64,000 bases of DNA, taken from NCBI GenBank assembly GCA_017517275.1, contig JAFWZX010000038.1, positions 388-64,387 of the forward strand. The letters run 5' to 3'. The notes under the pieces are model-generated. The model worked only from the letters and a program-made list of their open reading frames with translations, had not been told where the DNA came from and searched no databases. Position numbers and translations under genes: made by a program. The stretch's first letter is position 1. Every line of letters starts with the position of its first letter. The stretch comes from Clostridia bacterium (lineage in GTDB: Bacteria > Bacillota > Clostridia > UBA1212 > UBA1255). Positions 9,543 through 61,522 of the stretch are shown one piece after another.

Positions 9543-11276
9543 TTAATTATCCTGTTTTGCACTTATTTTCGGAGCGAAAGCTGAGGATATTTTCCTTGAA
9601 AACGGTGCAAATGCTTTCCTGGCTGCAGAAGCTAATTTAGGGTTTTTGAAAACATTATCGATTATCATCTCAACATTTTTGGTTATAACCCGAGAGGAAG
9701 GAATCTCATTGAAAACAAGTTCTAACGATTCGGCATCATTTTTCGTTCTGATATCTATGGTCCTCGAACATGCAAGTTCAAGAAAGGATACTCTGATTGA
9801 AAGCTTTCCGTAGACCACCTCACCCATAACAGCTATCTCGTATGATTCTGCTCCGATTTGTATAGTCTGCCTTGTAACCTTTCCGAAAGTGACGCAAAGC
9901 ATATATTCGTTGTTATTTTCTTTTACGGAAATTTCCAGCGTAGGCAACTTTTTTTTACCGTCACAAACTATTTTTTTCAGGAAAGAAATATTTGTTATTC
10001 CTTGTGAAAAATTATTATGCATTGCTTGTGAAATCAATGGAAACAAAGCCCCGCGTGCTGTATTTTTACCTGTAATAATATACTTCTTATTTTGTATTTT
10101 ATCTGAAAACCTGATAAAGGCCGCCCGTTTATTTTTATCATAATTCGGAATAATATTTGACTCAGTCGGAGCAGGTTTTGGAAGCGGTACCGATGAGGGA
10201 AAATAAGTTTTACCGAAGTACTTATGTGTTATGGCAAAAAAAGGTCCATTCTGTCCCAGTTCCTCATTACCGCAATTAGATACTATAAGCATATCTTTAT
10301 CTGTAAATCCAAGTATGTTTTGTCCAAAGATTCCGTTAAACAAGAATGTATTATCCTCACGGCCTACCCATATCTGACGGCCATAGTCATAATCTCCCAT
10401 CCACGAAGGAACAGACACTTTCTCTGCAAGCATATTATTTATTATGTTCACGGGAATTACAGCCTGCCCTTTCCATTTTCCTCCATTCAAAAAAAGTTGG
10501 CCCAGCTTTGCCGCATCATACAAGGTAAGGTATAGTCCCCAACCGCCTTTTTCAATTCCACACGGTGACAGCTCCCAGCATACGTCCGTAATATCAAGAG
10601 GTTGCCAAAGACGTGGCTTTAGATATTCCATCATATTTATTCCTGTTTTTTTCTTTACTATAGCACTCAACATAAAAGAATTCATACTGTCATAGTAGAA
10701 AATTTTTCCAGCCTTCTTGATTGCAATAGCATCAAAGTATCCTTTTATCCAGTCCGGCTCGTTCAAAGAGGATGATTCATTAAAAAGAACTCCGCTTTGC
10801 ATATTAAGAAGATGCTTTACCGTCACGTTTTTTCGCGCATTATATTGATGTTTTGTAATGTCTTCAGCAAAGATATCTGAAATACTTTCACCTATATTTA
10901 ACAAGCCCTCTTCCTGTAAAAAACCGACGGCAATACCTGTAATCGTTTTACTCAAAGAGTAGCACTCATGCCATATTCCGGCTTCATAACCGTGAAAACT
11001 CTGCTGCCATATTATCTTTCCGTGGCGAAGTATCATTATATTATGAAGATCAATCGTTCTTACACTTTTGAGGGCCTCAATATATTCCTTAATATATCTT
11101 GTATTAACGCCTTCGTCTTCAGGCAATACGTATGGAAAATCATTACCGTGCTTATCTTCCGATTTCCTCTGGACAGTTTTTTGCGTACAAAGAGGGAGCG
11201 CCGGAGTCAATCTTTTATCCGGAGACAGAATATCCATTATCATTTTTATACTTTTCAATTGCCTTTTTATACTCAT
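9543..11276 (-). CDS. serine hydrolase, beta-lactamase/transpeptidase fold (class C-like) with long C-terminal extension
   Basis: The SxxK motif appears in CYSLSKTITGIAVGFL, in a beta-lactamase-family context (HLLNMQSG). The product is 577 aa, with ~200 extra C-terminal residues of unknown function. Confidence 0.75.
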   Translation of the reverse strand: MSIKRQLKSIKMIMDILSPDKRLTPALPLCTQKTVQRKSEDKHGNDFPYVLPEDEGVNTRYIKEYIEALKSVRTIDLHNIMILRHGKIIWQQSFHGYEAGIWHECYSLSKTITGIAVGFLQEEGLLNIGESISDIFAEDITKHQYNARKNVTVKHLLNMQSGVLFNESSSLNEPDWIKGYFDAIAIKKAGKIFYYDSMNSFMLSAIVKKKTGINMMEYLKPRLWQPLDITDVCWELSPCGIEKGGWGLYLTLYDAAKLGQLFLNGGKWKGQAVIPVNIINNMLAEKVSVPSWMGDYDYGRQIWVGREDNTFLFNGIFGQNILGFTDKDMLIVSNCGNEELGQNGPFFAITHKYFGKTYFPSSVPLPKPAPTESNIIPNYDKNKRAAFIRFSDKIQNKKYIITGKNTARGALFPLISQAMHNNFSQGITNISFLKKIVCDGKKKLPTLEISVKENNNEYMLCVTFGKVTRQTIQIGAESYEIAVMGEVVYGKLSIRVSFLELACSRTIDIRTKNDAESLELVFNEIPSSRVITKNVEMIIDNVFKNPKLASAARKAFAPFSRKISSAFAPKISAKQDN

Positions 11277-37457: not shown

Positions 37458-40085
37458 TTATGAAATAAACTCTTCTGCTCTTGAGATCATTTCGTCAATC
37501 TTTTCAGGAGCCTTACCTCCTGCTTGAGCCATATCGGGACGTCCGCCTCCGCCACCCTGGCAAATTGCAGCAGCCTTTTTAACCACAACGGAGCAGTTGA
37601 TTTTCCTTTCAACGGCTGATTTTGTAGCCATAGCTACAATTGTCACTTTGCCTTCAGCGCCTGAGGCAACAAGTGCAACACCGCAATCCAGCTTATCTCT
37701 GATTGCTTCACACATTTCACGAAGTCCGTCTGAGCCAAGTGAATCAAAGCGAGCGGCAACAATACTTACGTCTCCAACTTTCTTTGCACCTGCAATTAAG
37801 TCGTCTATATTAGAACCGGCTGCAGCCTTCTTTACCTGCTCAAGTTCTTTTGCAAGCTGCTTATTCTCAGCAATCAAGTCCGCAACTTTCGTTGGAACTG
37901 TGAAATAATCAGATTTGATGCTATCTGCTGTCTGAGCTAAAGCACTTTCATATGATTTATAAATGTTTCTTGCAACGTTACCTGTCACGGCCTCTATTCT
38001 GCGCACACCGGCAGCAACAGCGCTTTCTTTTACAATCTTAAAAAGACCTATTGCAGACGTATTCTTTACATGAGTACCGCCACACAGCTCCACACTATAA
38101 TCGCCCATGTTTACAACTCTTACATTTTTGCCGTACTTTTCCCCAAACAAAGCCATAGCTCCTGATTTTTTTGCTTCTTCCACGTCCATAACTTTTGTTA
38201 CCACGTCATAGTGCGCATAGATAGCTTCGTTTACAAGTTCCTCTACCTTTGCCAATTCTTCTGCTGTTACAGCCTGCAGATTATTAAAGTCAAATCTAAG
38301 TCTGTCTTCATTTACAGAAGAACCCGCCTGATGAACGTGATCACCAAGTACTGTGCGAAGCGCCTTTTGAAGTAAGTGAGTTGCACTGTGGTTTCCTTCC
38401 GTAGCATACCTTTTGGCCTTATCGATAGACATTGTTACCTGCTGACCTACAGCCAAAGTTCCTTCTGTTATATTGCCTATATGCTTGAACTTACCGTCTT
38501 CTGTCTTTGTTGTATCTGTAACAACAACAGTTACATAGTCATTTTCAATAATACCTGTATCAGCAGTTTGTCCGCCGCTTGTAGCGTAGAAAGGTGTCTT
38601 GTCGCATACGACTACAACGTTCTCGCCTGCGTTTGCTTCAGAAGTAAACTCGCCCTTTTCATTTATTATATACAAAACTGTTGCTTCACTGCTTTGTTTT
38701 TCATAGCCTTCAAAAACAGTCTGAGGACATTCTTTCGGCAATACGACTTCCTGGCCTGCCCATGAGGTATCTCTCTTGATTGCATCCCTCGCCATCTGTC
38801 TTTGAATACTCATTTGAGCCTTGAAGCCTTCTTCATCAACCTGAATACCTGCTTCTGCGCAAATATTTCTTGTCAGGTCAAGAGGGAAACCGTACGTATC
38901 GTGAAGCTTAAATGCTACGTCGCCCGGCAAAATCTTTTGCGAATCACTCTTCTCAATCTCACTTATAAATCCGTCAAGCATGTTCATTCCGGCTTCAATT
39001 GTAGAAGCAAATCTATCTTCTTCCGTCTTAATAACCTTCTTGATATATGCCTGTTTTTCTTTGAGTTCCGGATATGCTCCGCAAGACAGCTCAATTACAA
39101 CGTCGCAAAGTTCGTATAAGAAACAACCCTTGATACCAAGCTTTCTTCCGTGTCGGGCAGCGCCTCTTAACAATCTTCTGAGAACGTAGCCTTTACCTTC
39201 ATTGGAAGGAATAACGCCGTCGCTTATCATCATAACAGTACTTCTGATGTGATCAGTAATTACACGGATAGAAACGTCGTTTTGTGTGTCGTCTCCGTAA
39301 TTTTTGCCGGAAAGTTCACACACTGTATCGATAATCTTTCTGATTGTATCTACTTCAAACATGTTGTCAACATCCTGCATTACGCAAGCAAGTCTTTCAA
39401 GACCCATACCCGTATCAATATTTGGGTGAGCAAGTTTTAAGTATGAGCCATCCTTTTGCTGATCAAACTGCGTAAAAACAAGATTCCAAATTTCAATAAA
39501 TCTGTCGCAGTCGCACCCAACGCCACAGTCAGGGCTACCGCAACCGTATTTTTCTCCTCTGTCGTAATGAATTTCAGAATCCGGACCGCAAGGACCGAGC
39601 CCAAGCTCCCAGAAGTTCTCTTCTTTACCTTGTCTTTTAATCTTATAAGCCGGAATTCCAACTTCTTTTGTCCAAATGTCAAAAGCCTCGTCATCATCTT
39701 CATAAATAGTAACCCACAGCTTTTCACCCGGAATCTCCATAACTTCCGTCAAAAATTCCCATGCCCATGTAATAGCTTCTCTCTTAAAATAATCTCCAAA
39801 AGAAAAATTACCCAGCATTTCAAAGAAAGTTCCGTGTCTTGCCGTCTTACCTACGTTGTCAATATCAGGAGTTCTTATACATTTCTGACATGTTGTAACT
39901 CTCTTGCAAGGAGGTGTTTGTGTGCCTAGAAAGTACGGCTTAAGCGGTGCCATACCTGCATTTATAAGTAAAAGGCTGGGATCATTTTGCGGCACAAGTG
40001 AAAAGCTTGGCAATCTCAGGTGCTGCTTTGATTCAAAAAATGCTAAATATTTTTCTCTAATTGTATTTAAACTAAGTTTTTCCAT
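37458..40085 (-). CDS. alaS: alanine--tRNA ligase
   Basis: The product is 875 aa. It has the N-terminus FFESKQHLRLPSFSLVP, the class II core FEMLGNFSFGDYFK, the editing domain HSATHLL...CGGTHV, and a C-terminal DHHA1 domain (GGGGRPDMAQAGG). Confidence 0.95.
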   Translation of the reverse strand: MEKLSLNTIREKYLAFFESKQHLRLPSFSLVPQNDPSLLLINAGMAPLKPYFLGTQTPPCKRVTTCQKCIRTPDIDNVGKTARHGTFFEMLGNFSFGDYFKREAITWAWEFLTEVMEIPGEKLWVTIYEDDDEAFDIWTKEVGIPAYKIKRQGKEENFWELGLGPCGPDSEIHYDRGEKYGCGSPDCGVGCDCDRFIEIWNLVFTQFDQQKDGSYLKLAHPNIDTGMGLERLACVMQDVDNMFEVDTIRKIIDTVCELSGKNYGDDTQNDVSIRVITDHIRSTVMMISDGVIPSNEGKGYVLRRLLRGAARHGRKLGIKGCFLYELCDVVIELSCGAYPELKEKQAYIKKVIKTEEDRFASTIEAGMNMLDGFISEIEKSDSQKILPGDVAFKLHDTYGFPLDLTRNICAEAGIQVDEEGFKAQMSIQRQMARDAIKRDTSWAGQEVVLPKECPQTVFEGYEKQSSEATVLYIINEKGEFTSEANAGENVVVVCDKTPFYATSGGQTADTGIIENDYVTVVVTDTTKTEDGKFKHIGNITEGTLAVGQQVTMSIDKAKRYATEGNHSATHLLQKALRTVLGDHVHQAGSSVNEDRLRFDFNNLQAVTAEELAKVEELVNEAIYAHYDVVTKVMDVEEAKKSGAMALFGEKYGKNVRVVNMGDYSVELCGGTHVKNTSAIGLFKIVKESAVAAGVRRIEAVTGNVARNIYKSYESALAQTADSIKSDYFTVPTKVADLIAENKQLAKELEQVKKAAAGSNIDDLIAGAKKVGDVSIVAARFDSLGSDGLREMCEAIRDKLDCGVALVASGAEGKVTIVAMATKSAVERKINCSVVVKKAAAICQGGGGGRPDMAQAGGKAPEKIDEMISRAEEFIS

Positions 40086-57456: not shown

Positions 57457-57495
57457 ATATATATTCCTGCTTCGTAAAAAAATCAAATCTTTTCA

Positions 57496-57524
57496 ATTTT
57501 ATACAAAGGCAGAGTAAGTGTCAA
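57496..57524 (-). promoter_or_regulatory. putative sigma-A promoter for rsmA
   Basis: In the minus sense it reads TTGACA - 17 nt - TAAAAT, about 40 nt upstream of the rsmA ATG. Confidence 0.45.
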
Positions 57525-57620
57525 ATAGTATTATATTAGAGGATTTGGTGTCTGATAAATAACGGGTGTGATTATTAATATTTGAATTTGAGCCCAGTAA
57601 GAAACTGTCTGCTGTGTTAT

Positions 57621-58400
57621 TTATGGCATTTCAAAAAATCTTTTCGCATTTTCCGTTGTCATATCGCATACGTATTCGTACGACAAATCTAAGATATCTG
57701 CAATTTTTCTGATTGTATAGACAGTCTTACCCGAATCATTTCTCGTTCCGCGAAATGGTTCAGGTGTAAGATACGGACAGTCCGTCTCTATCAAAATGCG
57801 TTCTCGCGGCATAACTTTGACCGCTTCTACTAATTTCCTTGCATTTTTGAAGGTTACAACTCCTCCAACAGAAAAGCAACAATTCATACTTACATATTCT
57901 GCAACAGACTCACTACTGCCTGAATAGCAATGAATCAAAGCGCCGCGCTTTGCATCAAGATGTTCTTTGAGTATAGTCATTGTATCAAGATGAGCATCTC
58001 TGTTGTGAACGATAACAGGTTTTGACAGTTCAGAGGCCAGTGCAAGATGTTTTACAAAATTCGTTTTTTGCGCTGCAATCTGTTCTTCTGAATAATCATA
58101 ATGATAGTCTAGACCGGTCTCCCCTATTCCAAGAATCTTCCTGTTATTTCCGCCGGTGAAAAGCTTCCTTATTCTATCAATTTCAGTATCGTTTGATTCT
58201 AAAGCATATTCAGGATGAATGCCCACGGTAACAAACATATTGCTGTATTTGTTCGCAAGCATAACAGCATCATCAATATCACCCGGACAAGTTGCTGAGT
58301 TGATTACGTATATGTCATCATCCAGAAACGACTTCATCAGACTATCTAAATCCTCATCGTATCTATCATCATTATAATGTGCGTGTACGTCTATAATCAT
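57621..58400 (-). CDS. tatD: TatD-family metal-dependent hydrolase
   Basis: It carries MIIDVHAHY, GETGLDYHY and a C-terminal ETDCPYLTP. The start overlaps the upstream stop by 4 nt (ATGA). Confidence 0.9.
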   Translation of the reverse strand: MIIDVHAHYNDDRYDEDLDSLMKSFLDDDIYVINSATCPGDIDDAVMLANKYSNMFVTVGIHPEYALESNDTEIDRIRKLFTGGNNRKILGIGETGLDYHYDYSEEQIAAQKTNFVKHLALASELSKPVIVHNRDAHLDTMTILKEHLDAKRGALIHCYSGSSESVAEYVSMNCCFSVGGVVTFKNARKLVEAVKVMPRERILIETDCPYLTPEPFRGTRNDSGKTVYTIRKIADILDLSYEYVCDMTTENAKRFFEMP

Positions 58401-60130
58401 GCAGTTTCAATACCTGCCGCTTCATGTAAATTAAGGGCGTCAATAGCCGCCTCGCGCATTTTATACTTCTGAATCTTTCCGCTTGCTGTCATCGGGAATT
58501 TATCCATAAACCAAATGTAACGGGGCATCTTATGGCGTGACAGGTTAACTCTGATATATTCCTTCATTTCCTCTTCTGTACATACTTCATTCTCTTTGAG
58601 AATAACACACGCGCATACCTCTTCGCCGTAATTCTTATCCGGAACGCCGATTACCTGGACGTCTTTTACCTGCGGGTGTGTGTAGAGGAATTCTTCCAAC
58701 TCTTTCGGATAAATATTTTCACCGCCGCGAATAATCATATCCTTGATACGTCCCGTAATTTTAAAATATCCGTCTTTATCTATTGTAGCAAGGTCACCTG
58801 AATGGAGCCAGCCTTCGCTGTCGATAACAAGACTTGTTGCTTCAGGCATGTTGTAGTAGCCTTTCATAACTGAGTACCCTCTTATTACCACCTCGCCTGG
58901 AGTGCCGCATGGAACATCCTCATAAGTCTCAGGATCAACTACTTTTACTTCAATGAAAGGCATTTTGCGGCCTACCGTGGATACTCTCTTGTCAATAGAA
59001 TCATAAATATTTGTCATAGTACAAACAGGAGATGCTTCTGTCAAACCGTACGGTATTGTAATTTCAGTCATATGCATAAGATCTACGACTTTTTTCATTA
59101 TTTCAATAGGACAAGGAGATCCTGACATGATGCCTGTACGGAGAGTTGTGAAATCATATTTAAAGAAATCCGGATGTTCCAGCATCGCAATGTACATAGT
59201 GGGCACACCGTACGTAGCCGTACATCTTTCTTTCTGAATTGTCTGCATAACTCTTACAGGGTTATATCTTTCAACGGGAACAATTGTAGAACCGTGGGTA
59301 ATACATGCCATTATACCAAGTACACATCCAAAGCAATGGAAGAATGGCACCGGCAGGCAAACTCTGTCTTGAGGGGTAAGAGTCTGGTTATCGCCTATAT
59401 TTTTACCATTGTTTAAGATGTTGTAATGTGTAAGCATTACGCCCTTCGGGAAGCCGGTGGTTCCTGACGTATACTGCATATTAACAACGTCATAAGGACT
59501 TACAGAGGCCTTAACCTCATTGAAATATTCCATCGATATCTCTTCAGCCTTTGCGCTGATATCTGACCAGTGATACATACCTTTGGGTGTCTTTTCCTTT
59601 TCATCAAGATAGATTATCCTCTTGAGTACGGGAAGCGACGGACTTAAGAGGTTACCGGGCCGGCTGTCTTTGAGTTCCGGACAGAGTTCATTTATTATTT
59701 GTACGTAGTTTGTATCTTTAAGACCTTCCATAAGGATAAGCGTATCTGTATCTGATTGCTTTAATAAGTATTCTGCTTCAAATATTTTATAGTTCGTATT
59801 GACCGTTACAAGTGTAGCTCCGATTTTTGCAGATGCGAACATCGTAACAATCCATTGGGGATAATTCGTAGCCCAGATTGCAACGTGAGAGCCTCTCTTA
59901 ACACCCATTGCCAGCAAGCCTCTTGCTACTTTCTCACATTCCTCGTTGAATTCTCTATAAGTCATTCTAAAGCAATTATTCTTCTGAGATGCAGGCGAAC
60001 TGACTTCATTAAAAAGAACAGCCTCGTTGTCCGGATATACTTCAGCTACTCTGTTGAGTAAATTGCCCAAAGTCATCGTTATGAGAGAATCTTTGCCTTC
60101 TCCGAATAATTTGTAAGTTTCCATTTCCAT
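58397..60130 (-). CDS. AMP-forming acyl-CoA synthetase-like adenylating enzyme (ANL superfamily, FadD/YngI-like)
   Basis: It has the AMP-binding core YTSGTTGFPKGVMLTH. It also carries YGLTEASP, GWLHSGDLATIDKDGYFKITGRIKDMIIRGGENIYP and a C-terminal SGKIQK. The product is 577 aa. Confidence 0.85.
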   Translation of the reverse strand: MEMETYKLFGEGKDSLITMTLGNLLNRVAEVYPDNEAVLFNEVSSPASQKNNCFRMTYREFNEECEKVARGLLAMGVKRGSHVAIWATNYPQWIVTMFASAKIGATLVTVNTNYKIFEAEYLLKQSDTDTLILMEGLKDTNYVQIINELCPELKDSRPGNLLSPSLPVLKRIIYLDEKEKTPKGMYHWSDISAKAEEISMEYFNEVKASVSPYDVVNMQYTSGTTGFPKGVMLTHYNILNNGKNIGDNQTLTPQDRVCLPVPFFHCFGCVLGIMACITHGSTIVPVERYNPVRVMQTIQKERCTATYGVPTMYIAMLEHPDFFKYDFTTLRTGIMSGSPCPIEIMKKVVDLMHMTEITIPYGLTEASPVCTMTNIYDSIDKRVSTVGRKMPFIEVKVVDPETYEDVPCGTPGEVVIRGYSVMKGYYNMPEATSLVIDSEGWLHSGDLATIDKDGYFKITGRIKDMIIRGGENIYPKELEEFLYTHPQVKDVQVIGVPDKNYGEEVCACVILKENEVCTEEEMKEYIRVNLSRHKMPRYIWFMDKFPMTASGKIQKYKMREAAIDALNLHEAAGIETA

Positions 60131-60233
60131 TTCTGATACACTCCTTTTGGTTCGTACTTTTGCGGCAAATAAAAAATCGCCTTAATTCAATAATCATAAG
60201 ATTATATGAATAGAGACGAAAATGTTATCATAT

Positions 60234-60450
60234 CCGCGGTACCACTCTAATTAACAGACTCCGTTTGGCTGTGTGCCTCCCATTTATCCGTTCCCTCAAA
60301 GTGCAGTTAACGCCTGCCCATACGTCTTTGGTTACTGTGCTTCGCCAAAGCTGCTCCGGAACGAGTTCACATGAATCTAATGCATATCCCGTCTCACCAT
60401 CCCGGGACTCTCTGAAACGCCGACACCAGCTACTACTTTCCTTCATCGCA
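60234..60450 (-). promoter_or_regulatory. T-box riboswitch leader (tRNA-sensing) upstream of the acyl-CoA-synthetase-like gene
   Basis: In the minus sense, Stem I starts with UGCGAUGA (GA/K-turn), followed by an AGUAGUA box. An AGAGAG bulge and a distal hairpin UCCCG-GGAUGGUGAGA-CGGGA (GGUGNRA-type loop) follow. An F-box-like GCGUUA and the near-consensus T-box sequence AAUUAGAGUGGUACCGCGG (60234-60252) complete the set. The specifier codon and expression platform could not be assigned by eye. Confidence 0.85.
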
Positions 60451-60473
60451 TTTATCAATATTAAATTGGATGA

Positions 60474-60502
60474 AGTATACACTGTGCAAAAACTCATGTC
60501 AA
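60474..60502 (-). promoter_or_regulatory. sigma-A promoter driving the T-box leader
   Basis: In the minus sense it reads TTGACA (60497-60502) - 17 nt - TATACT (60474-60479). This places the TSS ~15-20 nt upstream of the Stem I start. Confidence 0.7.
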
Positions 60503-60577: not shown

Positions 60578-61522
60578 ATGTCTTCGAAAAACAGTAAGAA
60601 AATTAAAGACAGTTATCTATGGTTAATTCCTGCAGGTACGTTAACTGCAATGATTATTGCCTGTTGCGTTGCCATCGTCATGCTTATAAACACCGGTCTT
60701 CCGGGATTATTTTCACAGATTGATTTAGGAGTAACGATTTCTCAGGAATCTTTAGACAGCTTTGCGCAGAAAGCCAATATTGCAATAGACTCTTCAATAG
60801 CAGAAAAATCTTTGTCAACTCACAAATACATATGCCAAGGAGAAACTTTTCACGAAGAACTGCCTATATCAAGTGATGAATTTTCCTCTTTTATCGCATA
60901 TACCATGCCGGGAGATTTTCCAATAAAATCAACTCAGGTAAAGTTCAACGACGGAGGAGTTGAGATGTCCGCCAAAGTTAAACTTTCTGATTTTATAGAC
61001 ATGTTTGAAGAGGGAGACTCAGAATCCGGTTCCACGGATGACCCCACAGAACCTCTTAGGCCATTTGAGCCCGACGAGTTCCCCACACCTGAAAATCCTG
61101 AAAATTCAGGTTCGTTATTTAGTCCTGCCGCGATACGCACTATGGATTTATTTGAACCTACTCCGTCTGAGGGGGATAATGATTCTGAAGATGAAGACGA
61201 TGATGATTCCGGCGAAGAAGGTTTGAAGGAATTAATGCGCCGGCTTCCAAACACCGTAAACGTATACGTAAAAGGTACAGGTGTGATTGTGAATAACGAA
61301 ATAGCTGATTTACGCGTTGACGTGCTCAATCTTTCCGGTTTTAATCTGACAGACTTTGTAGACGAAGAAACGGCTTACGAATTGTCAAAAGCTATTATAA
61401 ACGGTATTCTCGACATAATGAATGAACAGTTAAATATCAATTTTGCATATGCAGTATTTACCGCAGATTCAATGGTTTTCACCGGTACAATGCCCGAATC
61501 GATTACAATGGTTGAGAAATAA
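60578..61522 (+). CDS. membrane-anchored protein with highly acidic low-complexity segment, unknown function
   Basis: An AGGAGG RBS lies 7 nt upstream of the ATG at 60578. There is one N-terminal TM helix (YLWLIPAGTLTAMIIACCVAIVMLI) and the acidic stretch SEGDNDSEDEDDDDSGEEG. The upstream part of the ORF-track frame (from 60470) overlaps the divergent promoter. Confidence 0.65.
   Translation: MSSKNSKKIKDSYLWLIPAGTLTAMIIACCVAIVMLINTGLPGLFSQIDLGVTISQESLDSFAQKANIAIDSSIAEKSLSTHKYICQGETFHEELPISSDEFSSFIAYTMPGDFPIKSTQVKFNDGGVEMSAKVKLSDFIDMFEEGDSESGSTDDPTEPLRPFEPDEFPTPENPENSGSLFSPAAIRTMDLFEPTPSEGDNDSEDEDDDDSGEEGLKELMRRLPNTVNVYVKGTGVIVNNEIADLRVDVLNLSGFNLTDFVDEETAYELSKAIINGILDIMNEQLNINFAYAVFTADSMVFTGTMPESITMVEK

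Follow-up and report, generated by a model that had tools for sequence, protein, structure and literature searches.

Within a 64-kb window of clostridial DNA, the whole stretch analyzed here, we found a canonical T-box leader with a novel, conserved, and noncanonical target gene. The leader sits between a TTGACA-17-TATACT promoter and the gene of a 577-aa enzyme of the ANL superfamily, a ligase-like acyl-activating protein. From the alignments and folds described below, attenuation of this ligase gene by a leucine-specific T-box is almost certain. As judged by comparison of related loci, the unit of Leu T-box and ligase is conserved over at least 35 Clostridia loci and is not a one-off. The features of the leader and the two genes behind it are listed in Table 1.

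Table 1. Features of the T-box leader and the genes behind it (window coordinates)
Feature	Position	Strand	Basis
Sigma-70-type promoter, TTGACA-17-TATACT	60474..60502	-	11/12 matches
T-box leader (Stem I, Stem II, IIA/B, Stem III, antiterminator)	60209..60455	-	RF00230 full-length match
UGCGAUGA, 5′ strand of GA (K-turn) motif, base of Stem I	60443..60450	-	Aligned to model positions 6-13
AGUA box	about 60437-60431	-	Expected model position
AGAGA bulge	60413-60409	-	Expected model position
GGUGAGA distal loop	60398-60392	-	Expected model position
Specifier codon CUC (Leu), then purine G at 60362	60363..60365	-	Rfam alignment and orthologous leaders
GCGUUA	60313-60308	-	Expected model position
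Conserved T-box sequence AAUUAGAGUGGUACCGCGG	60234..60252	-	Sequence, Rfam alignment, and folding
Antiterminator helix, AGAG/CUCU and GCGGA/UUCGU around UGGUACC bulge	60212..60248	-	Structure line of Rfam alignment
Intrinsic terminator, interrupted 17-pair hairpin (60219-60177), then U6AU3 UUUUUUAUUU (60176-60167)	60167..60219	-	Folding
Shine-Dalgarno AAGGAG, 10 nt before ATG at 60130	60141..60146	-	Sequence
ANL-superfamily adenylating enzyme (acyl-CoA-ligase type), 577 aa	58397..60130	-	Pfam, NCBIfam, motifs
tatD (TatD/YchF-family hydrolase), ATGA overlap with ligase stop	57621..58400	-	Pfam, NCBIfam

The Rfam covariance model of the T-box (RF00230) matched the minus strand at 60455–60209 over its full length (model positions 1–219 of 219) with 123.5 bits, against a gathering score of 93 (E = 6.8e-27). 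It was the sole Rfam family to reach threshold in the 64-kb window. An earlier sequence-only reading had called the T-box from its motifs and had given it a promoter of its own; the scan bore out the call, the motifs all aligned at the expected model positions, and the promoter was confirmed at 60502–60474, with a promoter also visible in the equivalent position of orthologous leaders. The elements of Stem I are complete in the alignment, comprising the UGCGAUGA...GGAGC K-turn base, the GAA-CUC-G specifier loop, CAGAGAG, and GGUGAGA. A UGGU bulge (60244–60241) lies within AAUUAGAGUGGUACCGCGG, and its predicted pairing partner is the ACCA 3′ end of the tRNA. The leader shares with class I transcriptional T-boxes, such as the Bacillus subtilis ilv-leu and leuS leaders, the K-turn, specifier loop, AG bulge and distal loop, Stem II with IIA/B, Stem III, a 14-nt T-box with a UGGN bulge, and a mutually exclusive terminator and antiterminator. 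The minimum-free-energy fold of the whole leader (z +1.08) did not reproduce the T-box fold, which is usual for tRNA-stabilized structures. No tRNA genes were found in the 64-kb window; the cognate one would be a tRNA-Leu with a GAG anticodon and A73.

The same reading had seen no clean terminator or U-tract, and on this point it was mistaken. A hairpin at 60219–60177 is followed by U6AU3; it appears in both the minimum-free-energy and the centroid structures and has −16.0 kcal/mol in targeted folding. A terminator consensus scan missed it because its stem is interrupted and AU-rich, and targeted folding recovered it. The strand UUCGUCUCU is common to the 5′ arm of the terminator and the 3′ strand of the antiterminator, so that the UGGN bulge lies inside an antiterminator competing with the downstream hairpin and U-tract. 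An equivalent hairpin and U-run follow 16 of the 17 other orthologous leaders folded; the leader of locus L081 was cut by the script at an internal T-run, and its terminator hairpin was read by eye. By these predicted folds, the leader has a classical terminator/antiterminator expression platform.

The specifier had been left undecided between CUC (Leu) and GCA (Ala), and the covariance-model alignment together with the orthologs upholds the first and discards the second. In the alignment GAA-CUCG stands ahead of the closing strand UUCCGGAGC, and the GGAGCAG that had suggested GCA falls on the 3′ strand of the K-turn and a linker; among orthologs, CUC gives way to CUG while GGAGC stays unchanged. 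All 33 leaders with a readable specifier (the window and 32 orthologs) carry a Leu codon, CUC in 29 and CUG in 4, and the synonymous change falls in GC-rich leaders. The B. subtilis ilv-leu leader uses the same CUC specifier. Bacterial tRNA-Leu has an A73 discriminator, which the UGGU bulge seen in 17 of 18 folded leaders fits. No non-Leu T-boxes (Ile, Val, or Phe analogues) were found in the ligase family among 167 loci. Locus L147 is ambiguous, its T-box preceding a true DAHP synthase.

Directly 5′ of ligase orthologs, a T-box also occurs at 34 other loci (35 with the window), drawn from genomes and metagenomes of Clostridia. The match reached the gathering score in 28 of them, fell just under it at full length in three (L016, L136, L109), and was cut off at a contig end in three (L124, L088, L090). 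About half of the clostridial-clade orthologs lack a T-box, and no other riboswitches were found 5′ of these. Whereas class I T-boxes regulate an aminoacyl-tRNA synthetase (aaRS), an amino acid biosynthetic operon, or a transporter, the target here is an ANL acyl-activating enzyme; the earlier suggestion of a noncanonical T-box regulon member holds across 35 loci. In the searchable literature we found no earlier description of a T-box tied to an acyl-CoA or AMP-binding ligase, and Vitreschak 2008 and Gutierrez-Preciado 2009 may mention one. The loci with T-box and ligase come from rumen, gut, and bioreactor Clostridia.

Assignment of the enzyme to the ANL superfamily was likewise sustained, by the Pfam domains AMP-binding (PF00501, E = 2.5e-98) and AMP-binding_C (PF13193, E = 4e-19) and by the core motifs YTSGTTGFPKG (A3), YGLTE (A5), GRIKD (A8), and PMTASGK (A10 lysine). 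Its closest family is NCBIfam PRK12583, "fatty acid CoA ligase family," which it matches over residues 9–568 with all core adenylation motifs but at 771.1 bits, under the curated cutoff of 832; PRK12583 is, therefore, its nearest family and not one to which it formally belongs. The closest solved structures, 8weu and 8wev, match the C-terminal 350 residues (E about 1e-82) and are distant relatives, too distant for a substrate to be inferred from them. A second 577-aa ORF in the window (9543–11276) is not a paralog and has a beta-lactamase fold. The clostridial clade has the T-box together with thioesterase and TIM-barrel associations, whereas members of the PRK12583-like family in Bacilli, Deltaproteobacteria, and Chloroflexota are without them. 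We take B. subtilis YngI to be a possible relative.

In the mechanism that we propose, the hairpin at 60219–60177 and its U-tract would by default end transcription ahead of the ligase gene. Uncharged tRNA-Leu would dock on Stem I, its free 3′ end pairing with the T-box bulge; the antiterminator (60248–60212) would then capture UUCGUCUCU and block terminator formation, and RNA polymerase would read through into the ligase gene and, in the window’s lineage, into the overlapping tatD. The genes induced through T-boxes increase the amount of cognate tRNA that is charged. Because induction would follow uncharged tRNA-Leu, this logic favors an acyl-activating enzyme that is induced by leucine starvation and adds to the leucine supply, and we consider such a role probable. 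Among specific activities, a high-affinity isovalerate (short branched-chain acid):CoA ligase forming isovaleryl-CoA is the likeliest prediction, and isovalerate as the substrate is itself a tentative assignment. From isovaleryl-CoA, reductive carboxylation by a 2-oxoacid:ferredoxin oxidoreductase would give 4-methyl-2-oxopentanoate, and transamination of the latter would give leucine; isovaleryl-CoA could also prime iso-fatty-acid synthesis. Taken as a whole, the explanation that joins Leu-T-box attenuation to a leucine-starvation-induced ligase, most likely for isovalerate, is the one toward which we lean slightly.

The reductive carboxylation of isovalerate to leucine in the rumen (EC 1.2.7.7 enzymes) offers a physiological reason for leucine-starvation-induced acid activation in rumen and gut Clostridia. 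Allison and Bryant reportedly saw, in the 1960s, ruminococci put isovalerate into leucine and iso-fatty acids. To our knowledge, the activating enzyme of this route has never been assigned to the family of the window ligase. How branched short-chain acids become branched-chain amino acids has been described as enzymatically unresolved (PMC7709123). Pfam and NCBIfam scans of 18 window ORFs, with ∼40 smaller ORFs lying outside the scan, found no 2-oxoacid:ferredoxin oxidoreductase (VOR/IOR type), ilvE, or leu genes. At locus L085, POR-family subunits lie about 7 kb upstream, an observation uninformative alone. The earlier idea of a starvation-induced acid-CoA ligase for salvage fits the Leu specifier and is the simplest reading; it did not predict the partner genes found in relatives, and a simple isovalerate-to-leucine route explains neither the thioesterase nor the TIM-barrel partner.

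The TIM-barrel partner, an enzyme of the xylose-isomerase-like family PF01261, adjoins the ligase in about 19 loci and is fused to it in about 18, all of these (about 37) belonging to the ligase clade that also contains the T-box loci. N-terminal TIM-barrel–ligase fusions of 843–845 aa stand directly behind Leu T-boxes at L145, L150, and L152 and, by tblastn, at L140, and a TIM-barrel gene lies immediately 3′ of the Leu-T-box ligase at L092, L105, and L124. A PF04909 amidohydrolase-2 also recurs (L092, L083, L147, L030). These associations would suit an uncharacterized pathway in which ligase and TIM-barrel enzyme, sometimes with the amidohydrolase-2 or the thioesterase, convert a hydroxy- or keto-substituted acid to leucine or a precursor, with only the ligase step kept in the window’s lineage. 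We judge it unlikely, if the best of the alternatives. The available sequence of the window, L001, and L003 has neither TIM barrel nor thioesterase, yet the T-box and ligase are intact, and the TIM domain has no characterized close relative (best PDB match E = 4.5e-5; weak NCBIfam epimerase matches), so no chemistry can be assigned to it. We know of no leucine pathway that uses such a TIM-barrel enzyme.

The thioesterase partner points toward membrane lipids. A PF01643 acyl-ACP-thioesterase-like gene, whose PDB relatives are acyl-ACP thioesterases, adjoins the ligase in 10 T-box loci of the window’s subclade, in directly downstream, convergent, or divergent arrangement, and the nearest NCBIfam family of the ligase is, by name, one of fatty acids. 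Under leucine shortage, the ligase might supply isovaleryl-CoA primer or reactivate fatty acids freed by the thioesterase, which would keep iso-fatty-acid synthesis from drawing on leucine or its keto acid. Iso-fatty acids of clostridia derive from leucine via isovaleryl-CoA (PMC5223564), and a precedent exists in MbcS of Staphylococcus aureus, an AMP-forming ligase proposed or shown to convert short branched acids from outside the cell into CoA esters that otherwise derive from branched-chain amino acids; it supplies primers for branched-chain fatty acid synthesis (PMC10026030 and PMC11167679). MbcS, termed a refunctionalized acyl-CoA synthetase in the title of PMC13584741, would be an analogue in function of what we propose for the window ligase; none of the MbcS titles and abstracts covered mentions a T-box. 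A lipid role is, however, decidedly improbable: lipid or acyl-CoA genes were not found in the T-box regulon literature searched, the window lacks the thioesterase, as do most T-box loci beyond one subclade, and if thioesterase and ligase shared an acyl group, the result would be a futile cycle.

The neighborhoods of T-box-less orthologs give indirect hints of a short-chain substrate. A butyryl-CoA-dehydrogenase-like acyl-CoA dehydrogenase precedes the ligase in about 12 of them; for the one locus tested, the best PDB match was Clostridioides difficile Bcd (430 bits), and an identity as isovaleryl-CoA dehydrogenase was rejected since butyryl-CoA/short-chain dehydrogenases were closer (430 vs. 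309 bits). In ten Brevibacillus species, about 1.6 kb separates the ligase ortholog, which has no T-box, from genuine leuD-leuC genes. A leucine-catabolic (liu/yng) context in Bacilli was not found in Sutcliffiella or Brevibacillus massiliensis.

Coupling of tatD to the ligase through an ATGA overlap was verified at 58397–58400, and the family of tatD is clear (PF01026, 245.9 bits with a cutoff of 27; TIGR00010, 250 bits with a cutoff of 206). The direct junction is confined to the window, L001, L003, and near-identical contigs from public data; at L081 tatD follows the ligase with two genes between, and apart from its near-duplicate L082, no other locus examined has tatD nearby. Because it follows the ligase only in the window’s own small lineage, tatD is probably a cotranscribed passenger there. 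What lies 3′ of the ligase varies by locus (tatD, thioesterase, TIM barrel, purE, signal peptidase, or none), which marks the ligase as the regulated gene; comparison of related loci rules out tatD as the real target. The sequence-only reading had placed the ligase in the slot of metS, which in B. subtilis is followed by yabD (tatD)-yabE-rnmV-ksgA. This amounts to ordinary tatD-yabE-ksgA synteny and gives no functional clue, with tatD absent or separated in related loci. That synteny and the tatD overlap would suit a T-box that is a decaying leftover or hitchhiker (for example, of a lost aaRS gene) or one that serves a tatD-ksgA operon with the ligase incidental, but the very small chance we gave this is effectively refuted by the comparative data: the leader is full length and high scoring with its alternative helices intact, it is kept 5′ of the ligase in 34 other loci with tatD near so few, a metS relic should carry a Met and not a Leu specifier, and ksgA has a strong promoter of its own.

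A T-box specifier points reliably to function, and a Leu T-box at about 35 loci, therefore, gives a strong and cheap clue for a large clade of uncharacterized “AMP-binding proteins.” Should the substrate of the ligase be isovalerate, as in our preferred reading, or another branched short-chain acid, a gene could be put to one step in the assimilation of branched-chain acids, the process underlying the requirement of fiber-degrading rumen bacteria for branched-chain volatile fatty acids; in the searchable literature, we found no gene assigned to this step. Rather doubtfully, it may be the missing acid-activating step of the isovalerate-to-leucine route that labeling studies have traced in rumen bacteria since the 1960s and, with the thioesterase or fused TIM-barrel partners of its relatives, form a hitherto unrecognized tRNA-Leu-regulated leucine-salvage module widespread in anaerobic Clostridia. 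If its substrate differs, as the TIM-barrel fusions hint, it would point to a new leucine-linked pathway. Under either reading, the T-box regulon extends past aaRS, biosynthesis, and transport genes.

We ran all Rfam models against the entire 64-kb window, and the sole match above threshold was a T-box leader (RF00230) ahead of the ligase gene, covering the full model at 123.5 bits (gathering score, 93; E = 6.8e-27). The sequence-only reading had picked out this leader by its hallmark elements behind a consensus promoter and had proposed the RF00230 scan as a check. Each motif that it named falls at its expected model position, and the promoter was recovered as well, its 3′ end ~19 nt ahead of the first model position. 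The window's alaS gene (37458-40085, reverse strand) has no T-box leader in the same whole-window scan; entries in a published regulon table give alaS a T-box in Lactobacillaceae genomes.

Features of the T-box-ligase region and of homologous loci (L numbers; loci compared with the window)
Feature	Locus	Coordinates	Strand	Remark
Promoter TTGACA-17-TATACT	Window	60502-60474	-	11/12 consensus positions matched
RF00230 match	Window	60455-60209	-	Full model
GA/K-turn strand UGCGAUGA	Window	60450-60443	-	Expected model position
AGUA box	Window		-	Expected model position
CAGAGAG bulge	Window	60414-60408	-	Expected model position
GGUGAGA distal loop	Window	60398-60392	-	Expected model position
Specifier CUC (Leu)	Window	60365-60363	-	Model alignment; usual purine next
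GCGUUA, Stem IIA/B	Window	60313-60308	-	Expected model position
T-box sequence AAUUAGAGUGGUACCGCGG	Window	60252-60234	-	Expected model position
Antiterminator helix	Window	60248-60212	-	Rfam structure line
Terminator hairpin UCGUCU..AUUCA.AUAAUC-UUAU-GAUUAU UGAAU..AGGCGA	Window	60219-60177	-	Folding of 60260-60125
Ligase ORF, 577 aa	Window	60130-58397	-	Shine-Dalgarno AAGGAG ahead of start
tatD	Window	58400-57621	-	Start inside ligase stop codon (ATGA)
ksgA/rsmA own promoter TTGACA-17-TAAAAT	Window	57496-57524	-	Near-consensus
PF01643 thioesterase-like gene	L004-L007, L009, L011, L090, L098
PF01643 thioesterase-like gene	L081	9745-10542
PF01643 thioesterase-like gene	L083	9689-10438	-
TIM-barrel-ligase fusion	L145, L150, L152	2125-4656		Pfam
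TIM-barrel-ligase fusion	L147	2119-4656		Pfam
TIM-barrel-ligase fusion, further	L137, L142, L149, L157-L161			tblastn
Acyl-CoA dehydrogenase neighbor	L019, L024, L028, L033, L039, L050, L052, L103, L106, L118, L125, L143
leuD-leuC neighbor (Brevibacillus)	L021, L025, L026, L029, L031, L042, L043, L060, L070, L079

The RF00230 alignment places GAA-CUC-G on the 3′ side of the specifier loop, followed by the closing strand UUCCGGAGC, and the specifier is therefore CUC. The sequence-only reading had been undecided between this triplet and GCA (Ala), which the alignment assigns to the 3′ strand of the K-turn and the adjoining linker and which is rejected. It had also suggested looking for a conserved specifier among orthologous leaders. 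Read through covariance-model alignments or the conserved GAA-NNN-R context, the specifier was Leu in all 33 readable leaders, the window's included: CUC in 29 and CUG in four, all GC-rich (L007, L009, L098, L140). The window's T-box bulge is UGGU, the last base of which would pair with the A73 discriminator carried by bacterial tRNA-Leu. At L006 (3907-3917), the bulge is UGGC and would mismatch A73, the single such case in 18 leaders examined. We left L147 out of the tally: the specifier loop of its T-box (136-386), GUACUUCUCC, allows three readings, CUC (the one in the covariance-model alignment), UAC, and UUC. There, the T-box is followed by a bona fide DAHP synthase (525-1553; TIGR00034, 244 bits), a GNAT acetyltransferase (1550-2041), and a TIM-barrel-ligase fusion.

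Folding of the leader, another of the proposed checks, yielded a terminator of 17 pairs with small internal loops between them, with UUUUUUAUUU directly after the hairpin; the earlier statement that no clean terminator or U-tract is present thus does not hold. A simple consensus scanner did not flag this hairpin because its stem is AU-rich and interrupted. The terminator 5′ arm overlaps UUCGUCUCU, the 3′ strand of the antiterminator, and the two structures are predicted to be mutually exclusive, the classical arrangement. A script found a hairpin on the shared antiterminator strand, ending in U5-U9, in 16 of 17 other leaders, with 3′ arms that vary in sequence; the L081 hairpin was read by eye, the script having cut at an internal T-run. 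As a riboswitch, the window leader is ordinary and canonical in every respect: its sequence marks it as a class I T-box attenuator for tRNA-Leu, predicted to gate transcription of the ligase.

The first downstream ORF is an ANL adenylating enzyme, as initially read (Pfam AMP-binding, E = 2.5e-98; AMP-binding_C, E = 4e-19), with complete core motifs (YTSGTTGFPKG, YGLTE, GRIKD, PMTASGK). Among NCBIfam families, PRK12583 ("fatty acid CoA ligase family") comes closest, its 771 bits falling slightly short of the 832 cut-off. The ATGA overlap with tatD is present in the window sequence. Of the two genes initially placed under T-box control, the ligase stands as the target and tatD does not: the ligase is the sole gene constantly found behind the T-boxes of these loci and the genes that follow it vary, so tatD is probably a lineage-specific passenger. 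It follows the ligase in the window, L001, and L003 (lineages 86-100% identical), and L081 has a thioesterase, a metallo-beta-lactamase-fold gene, and then tatD. Elsewhere, the ligase is followed by purE/purM, a signal peptidase, an ECF S-component, convergent genes, or nothing obvious. The T-box-ligase unit sits ahead of a housekeeping tatD-(yabE)-ksgA block. We found no terminator hairpin between the tatD stop and the ksgA promoter (57486-57621), so T-box read-through transcripts may run on into ksgA. Upstream of the T-box promoter lies a divergent gene (~60581-61522, forward strand; the start called mechanically, 60470, probably lies too far upstream), which is kept in L003 and public contigs L168-L170. 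Its ~314-aa product matched no Pfam or NCBIfam family and has an apparent N-terminal hydrophobic segment by eye.

A search with one genome per GTDB species gave 80 loci encoding ligase relatives, 4 further homologs were traced to contigs, and a metagenome scan added 80 loci. Apart from the window, 28 loci have a T-box that reaches the Rfam threshold immediately ahead of the ligase gene. Three full-length leaders score just under that threshold (L016, 73 bits; L136, 77; L109, 92.6), and three are cut by contig ends (L124, L088, L090). These loci are clostridial, of rumen, gut, and bioreactor origin, and are labeled as Oscillospiraceae, "Ruminococcus sp." MAGs, Syntrophomonadaceae, or unclassified Clostridia. 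Two more labels, Acetivibrionales and Pseudobacteroides, belong to homologs P0098 and P0085, outside the leader set. In a neighbor-joining tree of 164 ligases, every T-box locus fell inside a single clade of ~72, roughly half of whose members carry one; none of the other ~92 (Deltaproteobacteria, Chloroflexota, Bacilli, Desulfotomaculia) does. Other riboswitches occur near the ligase, none of them upstream of the ligase itself: cobalamin directly 3′ of the fusion gene (L140, 4756-4945), c-di-GMP-I (L016, 2130-2215), M-box (L085, 2062-2230, reverse strand), and SAM before metK (L023, 4532-4624).

Because T-boxes induce genes in response to uncharged cognate tRNA, the ligase, once induced by uncharged tRNA-Leu, would be expected to contribute to restoring Leu-tRNA-Leu. 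Enzymes of this ANL type act by activating carboxylic acids. The ligase would convert isovalerate, and possibly other branched short acids, to the CoA ester; a 2-oxoacid:ferredoxin oxidoreductase would then carboxylate the ester reductively, and transamination would close the leucine supply route. An isovalerate-to-leucine route is known through labeling work in ruminococci, and an AMP-forming enzyme would be well matched to scavenging at high affinity. The window leader resembles the T-box of the B. subtilis ilv-leu operon in sensing Leu. Isovalerate is the simplest candidate substrate, but we favor it only tentatively, as somewhat less than an even prospect, since this simple model explains neither of the two gene families that recur beside the ligase in the clostridial clade.

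The first is an acyl-ACP-thioesterase-like gene (PF01643) whose PDB relatives are acyl-ACP thioesterases. Within the subclade to which the window belongs, it adjoins the ligase in 10 loci, placed directly downstream or in convergent or divergent orientation, and it suggests a connection with iso-fatty-acid or lipid metabolism; it is missing from the window, L001, and L003. The second, a xylose-isomerase-like TIM barrel (PF01261), lies directly downstream in ~19 loci and directly upstream in ~18, and is likewise absent from the window. In the four upstream-type loci analyzed with Pfam, it is fused to the ligase N terminus as a single 843-845-aa protein. These fusions point to a substrate that is more elaborate or of another kind; comparison with PDB and NCBIfam gave no close characterized relative of the TIM domain. 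The Leu T-box is present in seven TIM-barrel loci (L092, L105, L124, L140, L145, L150, L152). An amidohydrolase-2 gene (PF04909) also recurs (L092, L083, L147, L030).

Outside the clostridial clade, ~12 loci without a T-box (Bacilli, Desulfotomaculia, a Desulfatibacillum genome, or unlabeled metagenome contigs) have an acyl-CoA dehydrogenase resembling butyryl-CoA dehydrogenase ahead of the ligase, and in another set (L036, L052, L054, L055, L071, and L073) a sigma-54 activator lies upstream. These neighbors suggest a short-chain acid catabolic context in those relatives. In Deltaproteobacteria, the ligase lies behind an XRE-cupin regulator. In ten Brevibacillus species, a T-box-less ortholog lies ~1.6 kb from a convergent bona fide leuD-leuC pair with an adjoining LysR regulator, a second association with leucine biosynthesis that is weak evidence because it is confined to one genus.

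Full-text literature searches returned no paper joining a T-box to an acyl-CoA or AMP-binding ligase, although an earlier mention is possible. No such target appears in the regulon surveys of Wels 2008 and of Sun 2013 with its supplements or in the TBDB paper; Sun 2013 sampled Firmicutes at family level (e.g., Clostridiaceae), and "Ruminococcus" and "thermocellum" are absent from it. The proposal of a noncanonical T-box target is supported by the 28 further loci. In function, the closest precedent is MbcS of S. aureus, which acts as a short branched-chain acyl-CoA synthetase supplying fatty-acid primers (PMC10026030, PMC11167679); the MbcS literature examined reports no T-box. In a recent rumen study, the conversion of short branched acids into branched-chain amino acids is still considered unproven at the enzyme level (PMC7709123). 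The interest lies in the conserved noncanonical target and not in the riboswitch: the T-box links leucine starvation to a large group of ligases that lack annotation and have thioesterase and TIM-barrel partners.
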